In this document: piece after piece, positions 1 through 5,880 of the stretch
How positions within the stretch are numbered: position 1 is the first letter of the stretch
How the letters are laid out: the number at the start of each line of letters is the position of its first letter
Origin: Escherichia coli
Lineage (GTDB): Bacteria; Pseudomonadota; Gammaproteobacteria; Enterobacterales; Enterobacteriaceae
Strand: one strand, 5' to 3'
DNA length: 5,880 bases
NCBI RefSeq assembly: GCF_030013595.1
Contig: NZ_CP122773.1
Notes under the pieces: generated by a model
What the model was told of the DNA's origin: nothing
Databases searched by the model: none
What the model saw: the letters and a program-made list of their open reading frames with translations, nothing else
Program-made: the position numbers and the translations under genes

Positions 1-1554
1 ATGATAGTTAAATTTCATGCCAGGGGAAAAGGTGGTGGCAGTGGTCCGGTTGATTACCTGCTGGGGAGGGAGCGTAACCGCGAAGGCGCAACGGTGCTTC
101 AGGGTAATCCGGAAGAAGTCCGGGAACTCATCGATGCCACGCCATTTGCGAAGAAATACACGTCCGGTGTTCTGTCGTTCGCGGAGAAGGAGCTGCCGCC
201 GGGAGGACGTGAAAAAGTGATGGCGAGCTTTGAGCGTGTACTGATGCCCGGTCTCGAAAAAAATCAGTACAGCATCCTGTGGGTGGAGCACCAGGACAAG
301 GGACGGCTTGAGCTGAATTTTGTCATTCCGAACATGGAGCTACAGACCGGAAAACGCCTCCAGCCGTACTACGACCGCGCAGACAGGCCTAGAATTGATG
401 CCTGGCAGACGCTGGTAAATCACCATTACGGGCTGCATGACCCGAACGCCCCGGAGAACCGCAGGACGCTGACACTCCCTGATAACCTGCCTGAAACGAA
501 ACAGGCGCTTGCTGAGGGCGTCACGCGAGGTATAGATGCACTTTACCATGCCGGAGAGATAAAAGGCCGTCAGGATGTGATTCAGGCGCTCACTGAGGCG
601 GGGCTGGAAGTGGTCAGGGTGACGCGAAGCAGTATCAGCATTGCAGATCCGAACGGCGGGAAGAATATCAGGCTGAAAGGAGCATTTTATGAGCAATCTT
701 TTGCAGACGGGCGCGGAGTTCGAGAAAAAGCTGAAAGAGAGAGCCGAATCTACAGAGAAAATGCTGAACAACGAGTTCAGGAGGCTCGGCGAATCTGTAA
801 GCGAGGCTGTGACATCAAACGAGACGAAAATCAGAGACGCTATAGCCCTGTTCACAGCCTCGACAGAGGAATCGCTGGAAAAACACCGGGAAGGGGTGAA
901 AGAGGCGATGATGCAGCACAGGAGGGACGTGTTAAAGCTGGCAGGGAATACGGGCATGATGTTACTGGGGATAGTCTTTCTCCTGTTTACCGCGAGTGGC
1001 GGGACGCTCTGGTATCTTGGAGGGAGGATACAGGCGAACCTGGAAGAAATCAGGAAGCAGGAAGAGACATTGCAGAAACTGAACGCGAAGACATGGGGCG
1101 TGGAGTTTGTGCAGGACGGGAACAGGAAATTCCTTGTCCTTCCGTACGGGAAATCAGCGGAGGTGATTCCCTTTCAGGGGAAAGAGTGGGTACATCTGAA
1201 GGAGTGACACAGAGTGACAGAGCTGGAAACACATTTGCTGAACGCCTTAGAGCAGCTGCAACAGGACTATATGCAGCGGCTGAGCGAATGGGAGAGCGCC
1301 TTCGTGGAATTGCAGAAGATGTTTTCGCTTACGCAACGGGACAACGCGATGCTGAACGAGCGGGTCATGCAGTTGAGTCAGCAGGTGCAGCACTTGAGCG
1401 AGCAGACAGAACGCTTGAGCCAGTTATACAGCGAGAACTGGAGATAAGAGAGGAACGGCTGATACAGGAGCGCGAACATGTGTTATCCCTGGAACGGGAG
1501 CGTCAGCCGGAAATACAGGAACGCACGCTGGATGGCCCTTCGCTGGGATGGTGA
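1..1554 (+). CDS. mbeA: Mobilization relaxase MbeA (ColE1-type)
   Basis: 517-aa ORF starting at ATG at base 1; N-terminus MIVKFHARGKGGGSGPVDYLL and overall sequence match my recollection of ColE1 MbeA; GC-rich backbone composition; mbeB and mbeD nested in an alternate frame as in ColE1. Confidence 0.9.
   Translation: MIVKFHARGKGGGSGPVDYLLGRERNREGATVLQGNPEEVRELIDATPFAKKYTSGVLSFAEKELPPGGREKVMASFERVLMPGLEKNQYSILWVEHQDKGRLELNFVIPNMELQTGKRLQPYYDRADRPRIDAWQTLVNHHYGLHDPNAPENRRTLTLPDNLPETKQALAEGVTRGIDALYHAGEIKGRQDVIQALTEAGLEVVRVTRSSISIADPNGGKNIRLKGAFYEQSFADGRGVREKAERESRIYRENAEQRVQEARRICKRGCDIKRDENQRRYSPVHSLDRGIAGKTPGRGERGDDAAQEGRVKAGREYGHDVTGDSLSPVYREWRDALVSWREDTGEPGRNQEAGRDIAETEREDMGRGVCAGREQEIPCPSVREISGGDSLSGERVGTSEGVTQSDRAGNTFAERLRAAATGLYAAAERMGERLRGIAEDVFAYATGQRDAERAGHAVESAGAALERADRTLEPVIQRELEIREERLIQEREHVLSLERERQPEIQERTLDGPSLGW
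689..1207 (+). CDS. mbeB: Mobilization protein MbeB, encoded inside mbeA in a different frame
   Basis: 172-aa ORF; ATG at 689 preceded by AAGGAG (677-682); hydrophobic segment MMLLGIVFLLFTASGGTLWYL; same nested arrangement and length as ColE1 mbeB. Confidence 0.8.
   Translation: MSNLLQTGAEFEKKLKERAESTEKMLNNEFRRLGESVSEAVTSNETKIRDAIALFTASTEESLEKHREGVKEAMMQHRRDVLKLAGNTGMMLLGIVFLLFTASGGTLWYLGGRIQANLEEIRKQEETLQKLNAKTWGVEFVQDGNRKFLVLPYGKSAEVIPFQGKEWVHLKE
1214..1447 (+). CDS. mbeD: Mobilization protein MbeD, nested in mbeA frame-shifted
   Basis: 77-aa ORF with GTG start at 1214, GGAG at 1201-1204; begins 7 nt after the mbeB stop; position and size fit ColE1 mbeD. Confidence 0.7.
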   Translation: MTELETHLLNALEQLQQDYMQRLSEWESAFVELQKMFSLTQRDNAMLNERVMQLSQQVQHLSEQTERLSQLYSENWR

Positions 1555-1559
1555 AACCA

Positions 1560-1730
1560 TGAAAAATGGCAGGTTCATTGGATTAAGGCGGACTAATGTG
1601 CTCTGTGCCATCTGGTTGCATAGGTATTCATACGGTTAAAATTTATCAGGCGCGATCGCGGCAGTTTTTCGGGTGGTTTGTTGCTATTTTTACCTGTCTG
1701 CTGCCGTGATCGCGCTGAACGCGTTTTAGC
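1560..1730. promoter_or_regulatory. cer-like accessory sequences (ArgR/PepA binding region) of the multimer-resolution site
   Basis: ARG-box-like TGCATAGGTATTCATA at 1617-1632, about 100 bp from the Xer core as in ColE1 cer; the stretch matches my recollection of the ColE1 cer accessory sequence almost base for base; contains inverted repeat 1649-1664 / 1701-1715. Confidence 0.65.
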
Positions 1731-1759
1731 GGTACGTACAAACTGTTGTTATGTTAAAT
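1731..1759 (+). other. XerC/XerD core recombination site (cer-like, variant central region)
   Basis: GGTACGTACAA (1731-1741; 10/11 to cer XerC arm GGTGCGTACAA), 7-bp central ACTGTTG (1742-1748), TTATGTTAAAT (1749-1759; identical to the dif XerD arm, 10/11 to cer TTATGGTAAAT). Confidence 0.7.
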
Positions 1760-1781
1760 ACTGATGGGCTTTCCTGATTGA

Positions 1782-2696
1782 TTATCCGAAGATCAATCCC
1801 CAAACACTTTTAGCTACAGAAACAATGGCTTTCTTGGCGACTTTAGCCACTGACGCTATTGGTTTAGGTAGTACGGTGTCTATTATATCATCAATAGCTC
1901 TATCTACGGTGTCTGCGAACCCGTCCTTTGCCGTTTCTACAATTTCTTTTGTTTTTATTTCGTCTTTTACTTGATGCACCACTCCGCTCTGTGCTTCCTT
2001 TGGGAGCGATCTTACTATTGCCTCCACTAACCTTGAAATGTTATAACCTTCATTCGCAGATACAGATATAACGGGATGTTTGGTAAAACCGAATCGTTCT
2101 ATTAAGTATTCTTCCTTTTTTCTAATATTTATTTGTTGTGAGGGTGATGGTTGGTGTTTTTCTTCATCCCATTCGCGGAATGGCTCAATCTTGTCGACTT
2201 GGTTTAAAACAAACAACACTTTTTCATCACCACCAACTGGTTTTAAAACATTTTTATAAAAGTGCTCATCAGCTGAAAATGCTCGATCATCACCTTTAAC
2301 AACCCAAAGCACCAGATCTAATTCTGGGAGAAGATTTTTATACAACTCTTCATATTCTATATCTTTAGCTTCATTTTCACCTACACCTGGTATATCTATT
2401 ATTTTAATTGTTCTATCACCAAATGAAATTATTAATTCCTGAACCTTTCTCGTGCATGCTTCTACATCACTCACTGCACATACATTACCTTTAAAGATAG
2501 AATTACATAGGCTGGATTTACCAGCGCCGGTTTTACCCATAATCCCTATTACTGGTTCGTAATTAATAACATTTCTAATTTTGTTATAGACAGACTTGCG
2601 AATCTCTTTAGGTAGAACATCCACAGCTTCTTTGATTAATTTTATACCTTGCGTATTGTTTTCCATAGTTACTATTTTCCTCATTTTGTTGTTCAT
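1782..2696 (-). CDS. P-loop GTPase, YfjP/YeeP/YkfA-like (50S ribosome-binding GTPase / MMR_HSR1-type domain)
   Basis: Walker A GKTGAGKS (nt 2514-2537, minus), G3 DIPGVGE, G4-like NQVDK; stretch VIGIMGKTGAGKSSLCN...DxPGVGE...LDLVLW resembles E. coli prophage GTPases YfjP/YkfA as I recall them. Start is ambiguous: ATG at 2696 lies 5 nt after the upstream gene stop; ATG at 2666 has an AGGAA 9 nt upstream; the track's ATG at 2753 gives a K/R-rich extension overlapping the upstream gene and has no SD. Confidence 0.8.
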   Translation of the reverse strand: MNNKMRKIVTMENNTQGIKLIKEAVDVLPKEIRKSVYNKIRNVINYEPVIGIMGKTGAGKSSLCNSIFKGNVCAVSDVEACTRKVQELIISFGDRTIKIIDIPGVGENEAKDIEYEELYKNLLPELDLVLWVVKGDDRAFSADEHFYKNVLKPVGGDEKVLFVLNQVDKIEPFREWDEEKHQPSPSQQINIRKKEEYLIERFGFTKHPVISVSANEGYNISRLVEAIVRSLPKEAQSGVVHQVKDEIKTKEIVETAKDGFADTVDRAIDDIIDTVLPKPIASVAKVAKKAIVSVAKSVWGLIFG

Positions 2697-2701
2697 ATGA
2701 A

Positions 2702-3136
2702 TTAACGGAAGCTTGTTTTTCTTTCTTCTTTTTCTTCCCCGCATACAGAACATTTGTAATGGCGATAGGTATCAGAACTCCCACTAAGATACCAATTGTG
2801 TCTTTTACCATGAACTCGCTCTGTAAAACATCTCACGCATCTTTCTTTCACATTGCAATAATCATCGACTGCAATTTCAACAAATCTTTCATGCCTTTCG
2901 CCTTCTTGTTCAGCGCCACAGTCGATACACTTTTTTACAGTTGTGCACTTGAAATCGTATTTATAATTTTCCTCTCCGTATTTATGCTGTTCTTTTTGTA
3001 TAGTGCGATTGCAGTCAGGGCATAGTTTAGAATATTTACAAGTCTCACCATCAATAAGCTTATAGTTTCCTCCGTGTATACCTACCCCACACTTAGCCTT
3101 GATTGCTGCATTTTTTATGCTATCCCAAAAGCCCAT
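2702..3136 (-). CDS. Cysteine-rich putative zinc-binding protein (three tandem C-x5-C-x2-C...H modules plus terminal CxxC)
   Basis: 144-aa ORF; SD GGGAG 8 nt upstream of ATG at 3136; 12 Cys; C33-x5-C39-x2-C42, C64-x5-C70-x2-C73, C94-x5-C100-x2-C103 with periodicity ~30 aa, each followed by His, and C129-x2-C132; AT-rich like neighbours. Confidence 0.75.
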   Translation of the reverse strand: MGFWDSIKNAAIKAKCGVGIHGGNYKLIDGETCKYSKLCPDCNRTIQKEQHKYGEENYKYDFKCTTVKKCIDCGAEQEGERHERFVEIAVDDYCNVKERCVRCFTERVHGKRHNWYLSGSSDTYRHYKCSVCGEEKEERKTSFR

Positions 3137-3181
3137 GGAAAAATCTCCCTACGATTAGTTGATATAAGTTGAACAATTCAT

Positions 3182-3225
3182 CGACATGATTATACACGTA
3201 TAGTGTGTGGATATATAAAAATGAG
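3182..3225 (-). promoter_or_regulatory. Candidate sigma70 promoter for the zinc-ribbon/GTPase operon
   Basis: Perfect TATAAT on the minus strand (complement of 3189-3194) about 46 nt upstream of the 3136 start codon; -35 is weak (TATATA-like); AT-rich intergenic region. Confidence 0.3.
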
Positions 3226-3363
3226 TATGGATTTATGCTCTGTATAATGTTGTTGTTATATTAAATATAGAGCTGAAAAAGTGGGGGCACTGGATAAACT
3301 TCGTGTTTTTCCCGCAAAGATAGTATTGGAAAGTCATTGTCTAATTCATCCAAGATAAATATT

Positions 3364-4176
3364 TTACGAATTTGTGAGTTTGCTTGAGATTTTTATATAT
3401 TCAGCCTTTATTAACTCATTGCCATATTTTTTCTCGAGCCTTTTAACAATGAAATGACCTCGAGCCATATCTTGATAATAGTCGGTAAACATTGTGTTTA
3501 ATGTGGCTCCAGTTAGTGCTCCAATAACGGGAACGACTTGAGCTGCCATTTTTTCCGTAATAACTATACCAAATCTTGTTGCAACTTTTTCTATTAACGA
3601 AGCTAACCATTTTCCTGTTTGTACTGAAGATGCGTTTTTGACAGCAATGTTAGAAATTTCTTTGGATAAATCTTGTACGATCTCGGCAGTCAAACTTCTT
3701 GTTGCATAGTATGCAGTATTAGCTGCATCATCGTCATCAGATGGTCCTCCCAAGGAAAACACCTCTAAGCAGGCCAGTTTGGTATCAATATTATCTAGCT
3801 CAAAACCTTCACTTCTTGCTATGTCAGCAATTGAACGAAGCATAATTGTCGTTGAAACCGGTAACTCAATTGCTAATGCAGAAAAGCCAAAAGCGCCACC
3901 AATGGCTCCAGATACGGCCGCAAAGAATTTATTTGTCTTAGTTGATGCTATTCGGTTAGGTTCATTGTCTAGACTCCATAAGGCTGCATCAGCAGCTTTG
4001 TGGAGAGATTTTTCTACTAGACTATAAATTTGCTCTTCTGCCCCTTTGGGAAGTTTACTCATTAAGTAATCTATTGGGGTTCCAACTAATTGGGTTAATG
4101 TTTCAGTAATTGTATCTTGTTCTAATAATTCTACGGCCCTTTCTAAAGCCCGCAGATCTCCTTCTTCAAGATGCAT
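3364..4176 (-). CDS. Hypothetical protein, possibly EcsC-family-like
   Basis: 270-aa ORF; AAGGA 8 nt upstream of ATG at 4176; Gly/Ala-rich hydrophobic segments (AAVSGAIGGAFGFSALAIELPV, VVPVIGALTGATLNTMF), acidic patch GGPSDDDD; overall impression matches EcsC-family proteins but this is from memory, not a search. Confidence 0.7.
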   Translation of the reverse strand: MHLEEGDLRALERAVELLEQDTITETLTQLVGTPIDYLMSKLPKGAEEQIYSLVEKSLHKAADAALWSLDNEPNRIASTKTNKFFAAVSGAIGGAFGFSALAIELPVSTTIMLRSIADIARSEGFELDNIDTKLACLEVFSLGGPSDDDDAANTAYYATRSLTAEIVQDLSKEISNIAVKNASSVQTGKWLASLIEKVATRFGIVITEKMAAQVVPVIGALTGATLNTMFTDYYQDMARGHFIVKRLEKKYGNELIKAEYIKISSKLTNS

Positions 4177-4329
4177 ATAATGAATCCTTTATGAATCAAT
4201 CGATAGTCTACTTTTGTAAGTGATTCGTCTTGGGAGCTTACCTTGAGCGAGTTCAGTGATTCAATAGGCGAGATGCCGACATCATTGTTGTCTGTGAAGC
4301 AGGAGTGATGAAAAGATCAAAGGATCCTC

Positions 4330-4358
4330 TTGTGATCCTTTTTTTCTGCGCGTAATCT
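4330..4358 (+). promoter_or_regulatory. RNA II (replication primer) promoter
   Basis: -35 TTGTGA (4330-4335), 17-bp spacer, -10 TAATCT (4353-4358); aligns with the pMB1 P2 region (TTGAGA...GTAATCT). Confidence 0.7.
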
Positions 4359-4367
4359 GCTGCCTGT

Positions 4368-4475
4368 AAACAAAAAAACCACCGCTACCAACGGTGGTTT
4401 GTTTGCCGGATCAAGAGCTACCAACTCTTTTTCCGAAGGTAACTGGCTTGGTGGAGCACAGATACCAAATACTGT
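4368..4475 (-). ncRNA. RNA I antisense copy-number control RNA (108 nt)
   Basis: Reverse complement of 4368-4475 reads ACAGTATTTGGTATCTGTGCTCCACCAAGCCAGTTACC...CCACCGTTGGTAGCGGTGGTTTTTTTGTTT, i.e. the canonical three stem-loop RNA I with terminal hairpin plus U-run; differs from pMB1 in loop-proximal bases. Confidence 0.85.
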
Positions 4476-4511: not shown

Positions 4512-5149
4512 GAACTCTTAATATCTCAATCCACCTTGTCCAGTTACCAGTGGCTGCTGCCAGTGGCGCTTTGTCGTGTCTTACCGGGTTGGACTCAAGA
4601 CGATAGTTACCGGATAAGGCGCAGCGGTCGGGCTGAACGGGGGGTTCGTGCACACAGCCCAGCTTGGAGCGAACGACCTACACCGAACTGAGATACCAAC
4701 AGCGTGAGCTATGAGAAAGCGCCACGCTTCCCGAAGGGAGAAAGGCGGACAGGTATCCGGTAATCGGCAGGGTCGGAACAGGAGAGCGCACGAGGGAGCC
4801 ACCAGGGGGAAACGCCTGGTATCTTTAAGTCCTGTCGGGTTTCGCCACCTCTGACTTGAGCGTCAATTTTTGTGATGCTCGTCAGGGGGGCGGAGCCTAT
4901 GGAAAAACGCCAGGGGCGCGGCCTTTTTCCTGGTTTTGCCTTTTTGCTCACATGTTCTTTCCGGCCTTATCCCCTGATTCTGTGGGTAACCGCATTACCG
5001 TCTCTGAGTGAGCTGATACCGCTCGCCGCAGCCGAACGACCGAGCGCAGCGAGTCAGTGAGCGAGGAAGCGGAAGAGCGTAGGCATTTGCATTTTCTCCT
5101 TACGCATCTGTGCGGCATTTCACACCGTCCATGGCGCACTTTTCATACA

Positions 5150-5300
5150 ATCCGCACTGATGTCGCATAGTTAAGCCAGTATACACTCCGCTAGCGCTAC
5201 GTGACTGGTTCAGGGCTTCGCCCCGAAACCCCCTGACGCGCCCTGACGGGCTTGTCTGCTCCCGGCATCCGCTCACAGACAAGCTGTGACCGTCTCCGGG
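5150..5300 (-). other. oriT / bom region (ColE1-type), nic site approx. 5175/5176 on the minus strand
   Basis: Minus strand reads ...GTAGCGCTAGCGGAGTGTATACTGGCTTAACTATGCGACA..., near-identical to the pBR322 bom/nic region as recalled; nic position inferred by alignment, not seen directly. Confidence 0.6.
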
Positions 5301-5311
5301 AGCTGCATGTG

Positions 5312-5503
5312 TCAGTGGTTTTCACCGTCATCCCCGAAGCGTGCGAGGCAGCTGCGGTAAAGCTCATCGGCGTGGTCGTGAAGCGATTCACAGATATCTG
5401 CCTGTTCATCCGCGTCCAGTTCGTTGAGCTTCTCCAGCAGCGTTAATGTCTGGCTTCTGATAAAGCGGGCCATGTTAAGGGCGGTTTTTTCCTGTTTTGT
5501 CAC
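5312..5503 (-). CDS. rop: Rop/Rom RNA I-RNA II pairing modulator (63 aa)
   Basis: GTG start at 5503 preceded by GGAGG 5 nt upstream; protein (M)TKQEKTALNMARFIRSQTLTLLEKLNELDADEQADICESLHDHADELYRSCLARFGDDGENH matches pMB1 Rop except the last residue; the 87-aa track ORF is an upstream in-frame extension. Confidence 0.9.
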   Translation of the reverse strand: MTKQEKTALNMARFIRSQTLTLLEKLNELDADEQADICESLHDHADELYRSCLARFGDDGENH

Positions 5504-5567
5504 TGATGCCTCCGTGTAAGGGGGATTTCTGTTCATGGGGGTAATGATACCGATGAAACGCGAGAGG

Positions 5568-5880
5568 ATGCTCACGATACGGGTTACTGATGATGAACAT
5601 GCCCGGTTACTGGAACGCTGTGAGGGTAAACAACTGGCGGTATGGATGCGGCGGGTCTGCCTGGGGGAGCCGGTTGCCCGTTCCGGAAAACTGCCGACAC
5701 TGGCACCGCCGTTACTGCGTCAGCTGGCCGCCATCGGAAATAACCTGAATCAGACAGCCCGTAAGGTGAACAGCGGGCAGTGGTCTTCCGGTGACCGGGT
5801 TCAGGTGGTGGCCGCACTGATGGCCATCGGGGATGAGCTGCGCCGGCTGCGTCTGGCTGTCAGGGAACAGGGGGCGCGGG
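5568..5880 (+). CDS. mbeC: Mobilization protein MbeC (3'-partial, runs off window end)
   Basis: ATG at 5568; open frame to window end translating MLTIRVTDDEHARLLERCEGKQLAVWMRRVCLGEPVARSGKLPTLAPPLLRQLAAIGNNLNQTARKVNSGQWSSGDRVQVVAALMAIGDELRRLRLAVREQGAR, matching ColE1/pMB1 MbeC as recalled; not in the ORF track because it has no stop in-window. In-frame ATGs at 5535, 5544 and 5553 are alternative starts. Confidence 0.85.
   Translation, partial: MLTIRVTDDEHARLLERCEGKQLAVWMRRVCLGEPVARSGKLPTLAPPLLRQLAAIGNNLNQTARKVNSGQWSSGDRVQVVAALMAIGDELRRLRLAVREQGAR

Follow-up and report, generated by a model that had tools for sequence, protein, structure and literature searches.

A cer-type Xer site and a second, direct-repeat core bracketing a cargo module in a ColE1-type plasmid of Escherichia coli

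Organization of the plasmid

The window, by which the whole analysed stretch of 5,880 nucleotides is meant, is a complete ColE1-type mobilizable plasmid from Escherichia coli, and near-identical circular relatives of 5878-5892 bp are known from E. coli, Klebsiella and Salmonella. Its mobilization genes occupy positions 1-1554, with mbeB and mbeD contained inside, and 5575 onward, and a bom/nic sequence is found at about 5175-5190. Positions 1560-1759 hold a cer-like site on the plus strand, followed by a low-GC stretch (1760-4309) with three genes on the minus strand, after which BLAST comparison shows the ColE1 backbone to resume with the RNAII promoter region (4310-4473, plus strand). In an Rfam scan of the window RNAI was the sole match (4370-4473, minus strand, 68.6 bits), with no match to Rcd; the strand of RNAI places RNAII on the plus strand.

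Mismatch maps have revealed a mosaic backbone in three parts. The mobilization block (5613-5880 plus 1-1572) is 100% identical to ColE1, while a second block, from 1573 to about 4900, shares about 99.7% identity with a sibling plasmid from Klebsiella (L004) and includes cer, cargo and ori together. The third stretch, about 4900-5600, matches neither ColE1 nor this sibling. The recent, datable recombination breakpoints of the plasmid are 1573, about 4900 and 5613, none of them at the Xer core or the oriT nick: the breakpoint at 1572/1573 coincides with the far edge of cer, 160 bp to the left of where the core lies, while the sibling-like block ends near 4900, about 280 bp short of bom/nic. Homologous recombination in the backbone has clearly been active in this plasmid.

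Two of the three cargo genes make up module A (1760-3236, low GC, minus strand), as delineated from open reading frames, the RefSeq annotation of a sibling, and NCBIfam and PADLOC matches. The first (1782-2666) encodes a GTPase of the YfjP/YkfA/YeeP-like family, which is common on integrative islands, with weak matches to the LeoA/LeoBC models. The second (2702-3136) encodes a 144-aa Cys-rich protein with no match in Pfam, PHROG or NCBIfam. As the two genes lie 35 bp apart on the same strand, they probably form an operon. Module B (3364-4176, minus strand) encodes an EcsC-family protein matching the PADLOC candidate PDC-S29 (E about 3e-10). The cargo may have a role in defence. Two divergent TGTATAAT motifs of the extended -10 type occur in the intergenic region separating the modules, one at 3189-3196 on the minus strand, well placed for driving the Cys-rich/GTPase operon, and one at 3241-3248 on the plus strand, which would read antisense into the EcsC gene.

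The EcsC gene is also found beside the same type of ori, at about 91% identity, on 3.3-kb plasmids devoid of module A. Given this separate occurrence of EcsC and ori, and a GTPase/Cys-rich pair that is enclosed between two Xer cores (see below), the cargo can be divided into at least two modules. Module A was recovered from siblings only in a BLAST search for distant relatives in PLSDB, in complete E. coli genomes, among contigs with an identical GTPase and in an exact-pattern metagenome scan to the right of the second core; the same searches returned neither an empty-site progenitor nor a donor, and the closest GTPase homologues lie in integrase/AlpA islands or on uninformative contigs, with no Xer-flanked source among them. 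Several further observations concern the EcsC gene and its plasmids. One sibling contig (L011) carries a 30-bp insertion inside the gene, at the equivalent of position 4044, which may be either a genuine duplication or an error of assembly. In two larger plasmids the 3.3-kb EcsC backbone has acquired OXA-48 between IS1 copies (L100, NZ_CP195445.1) and a CMY beta-lactamase with ISKpn26 (L101, NZ_CP049849.1); Xer sites were considered as the entry route in both and rejected, the insertion sequences being responsible.

Anatomy of the cer-type site

The sequence-only reading had described a cer-like Xer site lying at the junction between backbone and cargo, with an accessory region close to that of ColE1 cer. 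Comparison with the real ColE1 record (L001), by alignment (A1) and BLAST, bears this out, with the accessory region being 93% identical to ColE1 cer without gaps. Over the 169 bp of 1573-1741 there are 12 substitutions and no indels, ten of them in 1573-1610 and the others at 1685 and 1734, so that only two fall within 1611-1741 and none within 1611-1684. In ColE1, the counterpart of this region contains the DNA bound by ArgR and PepA together with the Pcer promoter and Rcd (PMC5357621, PMC2831885).

The accessory sequences of the window (1560-1730, plus strand) were assigned their elements by identity along the gap-free alignment. Sites of the cer type have about 180 bp of accessory DNA on the XerC side of the core, with the ArgR box at a conserved spacing; the window agrees with this in about 170 bp of ColE1-like DNA that align without gaps, and the cer landmarks within 1611-1684 are intact by identity to ColE1. 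They include a promoter-like sequence at 1616-1642 on the plus strand (TTGCAT, 15 nt, TAAAAT) that overlaps the ArgR box in a segment identical to ColE1 and that we take to be the Pcer motif. An imperfect inverted repeat with 34-nt arms (1631-1734, plus strand; repeat pair I1, 71% complementary) is likely to be the Rcd stem region, judging from the same identity. A 53-aa open reading frame (1478-1639, plus strand) overlaps the accessory region and runs over the ArgR-box/Pcer DNA; it is annotated as a 'mobilization protein' in the Klebsiella sibling (3346-3507 of L004) and is probably not a real gene.

The primary core occupies 29 bp (1731-1759, plus strand) and reads GGTACGTACAA, ACTGTTG, TTATGTTAAAT, compared with GGTGCGTACAA, TTAAGGGA, TTATGGTAAAT in ColE1. 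Its 11-bp XerC-binding arm (1731-1741) matches the consensus GGTGCGYRYAA at 10/11 positions and shows a single change relative to ColE1, an A at arm position 4 (1734). The central region (1742-1748) has 7 bp where ColE1 has 8 bp, and the 11-bp XerD-binding arm (1749-1759) is dif-type, with 11/11 consensus matches and with its last base also being the last one held in common with other backbones. These are the three core differences that the sequence-only reading had listed, and all of them were recovered against the ColE1 record. The orientation of cer relative to RNAII is reported to be invariant in the family, with rcd and RNAII co-directional (PMC2831885), and the window conforms to this arrangement, both being on the plus strand. 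The core is moreover invariant across the 13 readable plasmids of the family, which fits purifying selection on a working site.

The earlier description of this core as altered holds in the sense that it differs from ColE1, but not in the sense that it is unusual. A scan of one genome per species with the pattern AGCGGTNCGNNNAA, 6-8 N, TTATGNTAAAT yielded 66 sites, and 62 of these have a plasmid-like cer context. Among these 62 natural cores a spacer of 7 bp was found in 39, one of 8 bp in 14 and one of 6 bp in nine, in keeping with the natural range of 6-8 bp given in reviews (PMC2699498). The XerD arm TTATGTTAAAT was present in 23/62, and GGTACG-type XerC arms occur in five other cer-like sites. 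The 7-bp spacer and the dif-type XerD arm are thus the norm and the 8-bp spacer of ColE1 is the minority form; only the spacer sequence ACTGTTG, which is less G-rich than most, was seen nowhere else among the 62. The scan also returned enterobacterial cer-like sites on short contigs labelled Varibaculum, Streptococcus, Marinifilum, Bradyrhizobium, Arthrobacter, Solirubrobacter, Allobacillus and Corallococcus (L020, L026, L037, L043, L046, L055, L077, L081 and others), which are most likely contaminating small plasmids in those assemblies.

By every feature that can be judged from its sequence, 1560-1759 is a member of the cer family of multimer-resolution sites, at which host XerCD together with ArgR and PepA would convert plasmid dimers into monomers. 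The site by itself is an ordinary, textbook plasmid stability element.

The homology break at the core

Similarity to ColE1 in BLAST extends at 99.3% identity over 1-1741 and is then absent until 4310, while similarity to other ColE1-like backbones ends at 1759-1765. Across this junction the GC content falls from about 0.52 to 0.33-0.40, and the stop codon of the GTPase gene (1782-1784, minus strand) lies 22 bp past the end of the XerD arm at 1759. Backbone similarity had been said to end within about 22 bp of the core; alignment to ColE1 cer and to related sites places the break nearer still, at the core itself.

A survey of 65 pairs of cer-like sites, at least 96% identical in the 80 bp upstream and followed by unrelated downstream DNA, showed the break at the core in all 65/65. 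The spacer was the same in only eight pairs, and the XerC arm was identical in 28/65 and differed by 2-4 bases in 34/65. The break thus often begins within the XerC arm, leftward of the position cut by XerC, and this is not expected from a simple Xer crossover. Furthermore, conservation of the backbone simply ends with the XerD arm, so that homologous recombination in the flanking conserved DNA would give the same picture. A junction at the core is therefore generic for this plasmid family and is not, taken alone, diagnostic of Xer exchange. One pair differs from this pattern in an informative manner: L065 and L076 share their downstream DNA and switch inside the spacer (TGCG-ACG versus GGAG-ACG), which is the signature expected from an Xer crossover.

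The junction had been read as the trace of Xer-mediated exchange of cargo between small plasmids, a mechanism already reported for ColE1-like plasmids (Tran et al., 2012; Zakharova et al., 2002, as cited in PMC8683028, PMC6764390 and PMC10454011). The generic nature of the junction, the differing XerC arms and the position of the three backbone breakpoints away from the core weaken the inference that had been drawn from the junction. For part of the cargo the idea itself nevertheless gains from two other lines of evidence, a second core around the GTPase and Cys-rich genes and core-bracketed modules in other plasmids.

A second Xer core in direct repeat

When the window was searched for XerD arms, a single additional near-match appeared, at 3256-3266. 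It forms part of a bare core, devoid of accessory DNA, at 3237-3266 on the plus strand, which consists of a XerC-like arm GCTCTGTATAA (3237-3247), an 8-bp centre TGTTGTTG (3248-3255) and the XerD arm TTATATTAAAT. The XerC-like arm agrees with the XerC consensus at 8/11 positions at the 8-bp spacing (p about 0.008 at the given place). The resemblance between the two cores is concentrated on the XerD side, where they have the XerD arm and the adjoining 5 bp of the spacer in common: the 17-mer TGTTGTTATGTTAAATA, composed of the last 5 bp of the primary spacer, the XerD arm and one further base, recurs at 3251-3267 with one mismatch, a level of agreement reached in 0/200 shuffles (repeat family D7). 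The lone mismatch is a G to A change at 3260 that is private to the window. The XerD arm of the second core is a perfect TTATGTTAAAT in 12/12 siblings, and the entire 17-mer is exact in 10/12. The second core also carries the ATAA-spacer-TTAT (ATAA-CR-TTAT) motif, which has been named decisive for XerC/XerD binding and cutting (PMC11705084).

The two cores form direct repeats, both on the plus strand and 1507 bp apart, and enclose exactly the GTPase and Cys-rich genes. At the other end of the cargo, next to ori (4177-4309), a search for XerD-like sequence gave nothing above chance level. A relic core just upstream of the EcsC gene in an EcsC-only plasmid (L005) was considered as well and set aside, its similarity to the second core being too weak to count.

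The two cores differ in their conservation. Only 12 positions of the cargo vary among 11 full-length members of the family, and three of these (3252, 3260 and 3271) fall at the second core. A sibling from metagenome data (L083) shows an extra 3-bp deletion that leaves a spacer of 5 bp, while elsewhere the 227-bp intergenic region does not vary among siblings. With about 0.16 changes expected in 35 bp, such clustering has a probability of roughly 1 in 1000 (our own Poisson estimate). The second core, with four variants among siblings, is therefore either decaying or unusually mutable and is not conserved like the primary core. This variability, the 5-bp spacer included, indicates that it is probably not a working site at present. 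Its XerC-like arm could also be fortuitous, given its overlap with the plus-strand TGTATAAT motif.

Secondary cores and bracketed modules in other plasmids

Secondary cores are not confined to the window. In 65 loci from the species scan that hold cer-like cores (295 kb), 11 extra exact XerD arms were observed against 0.28 expected, an enrichment of about 40-fold. All 11 lie downstream of the primary core in direct orientation, with none inverted or upstream, and eight of them have a XerC-like arm matching at least 7/11 positions, compared with 6.4% of random positions. One of the 11 (L054) is not in a plasmid setting, and the XerC arms of two are poor. The intervals between primary and extra cores measure 0.3-2.5 kb and contain one or two ORFs. 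Seven small plasmids of Rosenbergiella, Tatumella, Pantoea and others (L021, L023, L027, L029, L036, L040, L053) carry one or two extra bare cores of this kind downstream of a cer-like site. Within the small set of Rosenbergiella/Tatumella-type plasmids, no sharing of the modules between secondary cores was seen from locus to locus.

An independent sample of 16 PLSDB plasmids yielded one further case, a very common 5596-bp plasmid of Klebsiella pneumoniae (L093) in which a RelE/ParE toxin-antitoxin pair lies between two cores. This unit (3375-4272) is bounded by direct repeats reading GGTGCGGGCAA, CGGGTG, TTATGTTTAAT and GATGCCGACAA, CAGGTA, TTATGGTAAAT. The same core-module-core unit is present at 95% identity in pB1021 (L102, 166-1065), a plasmid in which both the accessory DNA and the downstream DNA differ from those of the Klebsiella plasmid. 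Homology between the two runs from the XerC arm of the first core to the final base of the second core's XerD arm, and the four spacers of the two units are all different (CGGGTG, CAGGTA, CAGATG, CGGATG). In a further plasmid, H203, the accessory DNA is 98.5% identical and divergence sets in within the first core. The comparison of L093 with pB1021 provides direct comparative evidence for the movement of core-module-core units between ColE1-type backbones. About one in seven of the sampled cer-bearing small plasmids has a secondary core.

In the sampled ColE1-type plasmids (L084-L099), the cargo beside the cer core is often defence- or addiction-like, with examples including ToxN/AbiQ, RloB plus an ATPase, a DUF3226 protein plus an ATPase, an NYN-domain protein, a DNA methyltransferase and RelE/ParE.

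Origin of module A

The reading that we favour, with a probability of about 0.6, is that the window holds a cer-type resolution site and a module A that was inserted by Xer recombination at the plasmid's own cer core, or that arrived through an equivalent fusion and resolution of two plasmids. A donor circle bearing a core would have recombined with the primary core through XerCD, of which XerC is known to make the first exchange at cer (PMC5357621); alternatively, and to the same effect, two plasmids would have fused and then been resolved. Either course would leave a hybrid core joined to the accessory sequences, and module A would end on its other side in a bare core. Because the bare core has no accessory DNA, no cer-type synapse would be built between the two cores and module A would not be readily excised, and the bare core may since have been decaying. 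The identity shared on the XerD side of the two spacers could reflect either an exchange that requires homology in that part or no more than a common origin of the cores.

Several observations weigh against insertion. The spacers of the two cores are unequal in length and diverge on the XerC side, a difficulty for an exchange begun by XerC. Resolution sites of the cer type favour intramolecular resolution over integration and other intermolecular reactions. No donor, other context of module A or empty-site plasmid appeared in the searches described above, homology to the EcsC-only plasmids (L005) starts at 3370, about 100 bp past the second core and not at it, and in many of the surveyed pairs the break lies inside the XerC arm.

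A history in which Xer plays no role is regarded as unlikely. According to this explanation the junction would mark the edge of functional constraint, with the cargo having been swapped by homologous recombination in its conserved flanks, namely cer accessory DNA and ori, or by illegitimate recombination, and the second core would either have come with the cargo or be an AT-rich promoter region that looks like a Xer site. Such a history is in line with backbone breakpoints that avoid the core and the nick, with homology that stops at the core in nearly every pair, irrespective of mechanism, and with a XerC arm that differs in about half of them, as well as with the overlap of the promoter-like motif and the XerC-like arm and the lack of an empty site in the searches. 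It is countered by the 17-bp identity, which covers exactly the XerD arm and the adjoining spacer and which chance would not be expected to give, by the strong enrichment of secondary cores that are all direct and all downstream, and by the toxin-antitoxin unit common to two backbones with breaks at the cores.

Exchange of the entire region from the Xer core to oriT, cargo and ori included, by fusion at oriT and resolution at the Xer site or the reverse, is considered improbable. Such a two-site model (Tran et al., 2012) has been published, according to the accounts cited above, for ColE1-like qnrB19 plasmids and for pECL18/pKPN2, and the block near-identical to the Klebsiella sibling does hold cer, cargo and ori together. 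The model predicts identity switches at its two recombination sites, the oriT nick and the Xer core, whereas those observed are at 1573, about 4900 and 5613, so that the sibling-like block begins to the left of the core and stops short of bom/nic; an internal second core is also left unexplained. Least probable of all is that the primary core is a crippled hybrid from a past exchange that no longer resolves dimers, with the second core active or neither, for although ACTGTTG is unique in the scan and an A at XerC arm position 4 is uncommon, it is the primary core that is invariant in 13 siblings while the second has four variants, its accessory DNA is intact and correctly spaced, GGTACG arms occur in five other sites, and the wide distribution of the family in E. 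coli, Klebsiella and Salmonella argues for stable inheritance.

Significance

A role for Xer recombination in the reshuffling of ColE1-like plasmids had already been proposed between 2002 and 2012, as far as the citing papers relate it (Zakharova et al., 2002; Tran et al., 2012). What is new here is a second core in direct repeat that brackets a module, together with its recurrence in other plasmids, which amounts to a modest variation on a known kind of site. A search of the literature on Xer/dif-like flanking sites in ColE1-like plasmids or Enterobacteriaceae, with many subscription papers outside its range, found no enterobacterial plasmid described as having direct-repeat core arrays anchored at cer.

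Should the secondary cores prove to be genuine substrates of Xer, the small high-copy plasmids of Enterobacterales would possess a site-specific route for the gain and exchange of single-gene cargo, such as toxin-antitoxin pairs, defence-like genes or resistance genes, with no transposase or integrase needed; the carriers of secondary cores include a very common 5.6-kb Klebsiella plasmid. A broader proposal, put forward tentatively and at somewhat below even odds, is that the cer-type sites of small enterobacterial plasmids may serve as cassette-capture platforms, where circles would insert at the primary core and build up arrays of one- or two-gene modules, each ending in a bare core in direct orientation. 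Under this proposal the window would be one such array, with the GTPase/Cys-rich module followed by the EcsC module, and the system would represent a Xer-driven, integron-like counterpart of the dif modules of Acinetobacter.

Comparison with known systems

The closest likeness is to ColE1 cer and cer-like sites such as mwr of pJHCMW1, with the accessory DNA (about 170 bp, at 93% identity to cer), the spacing and the layout of two 11-bp arms around a spacer of 6-8 bp all being alike; ColE1-family cer sites also agree in orientation relative to RNAII and in their position between the mobilization genes and a variable region. Relative to ColE1 cer, the window differs in the 7-bp ACTGTTG spacer, the dif-type XerD arm, the A at XerC position 4 and the presence of an extra, accessory-less core 1.5 kb downstream. 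The oriT/Xer swapping model (Tran et al., 2012; Zakharova et al., 2002) resembles the present case in a variable region that abuts the Xer site and in site-specific fusion and resolution, although here the edges of the mosaic lie off nick and core and the evidence consists of a second Xer core and not of an oriT partner.

Integrative elements that use dif (IMEX: VGJphi-type, TLCphi, the gonococcal island) offer a second parallel. They are likewise bounded by direct-repeat hybrid cores, one good and one poorer, with spacer homology that is one-sided, and the window similarly shows an insert between direct Xer core repeats at a resident Xer site. The target here is nevertheless a plasmid cer core and not a chromosomal dif, and genes for replication, phage functions or transfer are missing from the insert. 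No unoccupied target was found in PLSDB, the E. coli genomes or the metagenome scan, and the lack of replication genes sets the insert apart from elements with a free, replicative form.

The pdif modules of Acinetobacter, a system that has been called unique to that genus in the recent literature (PMC13141974), resemble the window in an arrangement of one or two cargo genes between XerC/XerD cores on small plasmids, with divergent XerC arms and conserved XerD arms; compatibility of pdif cores is thought to depend on the spacer sequence (PMC11705084). In the window the two cores around 1760-3236 would correspond to such flanking, the second one having a XerC-like arm with 8/11 matches only and a sequence that varies among siblings. 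Module A was found in one plasmid family only, while occurrence in several plasmid contexts is seen for the toxin-antitoxin unit of L093 and pB1021. Whereas pdif modules have alternating, inverted cores, reside on Rep_3 plasmids and lack ArgR/PepA accessory DNA, the window presents two plus-strand cores in direct repeat, anchored at a cer-type site.
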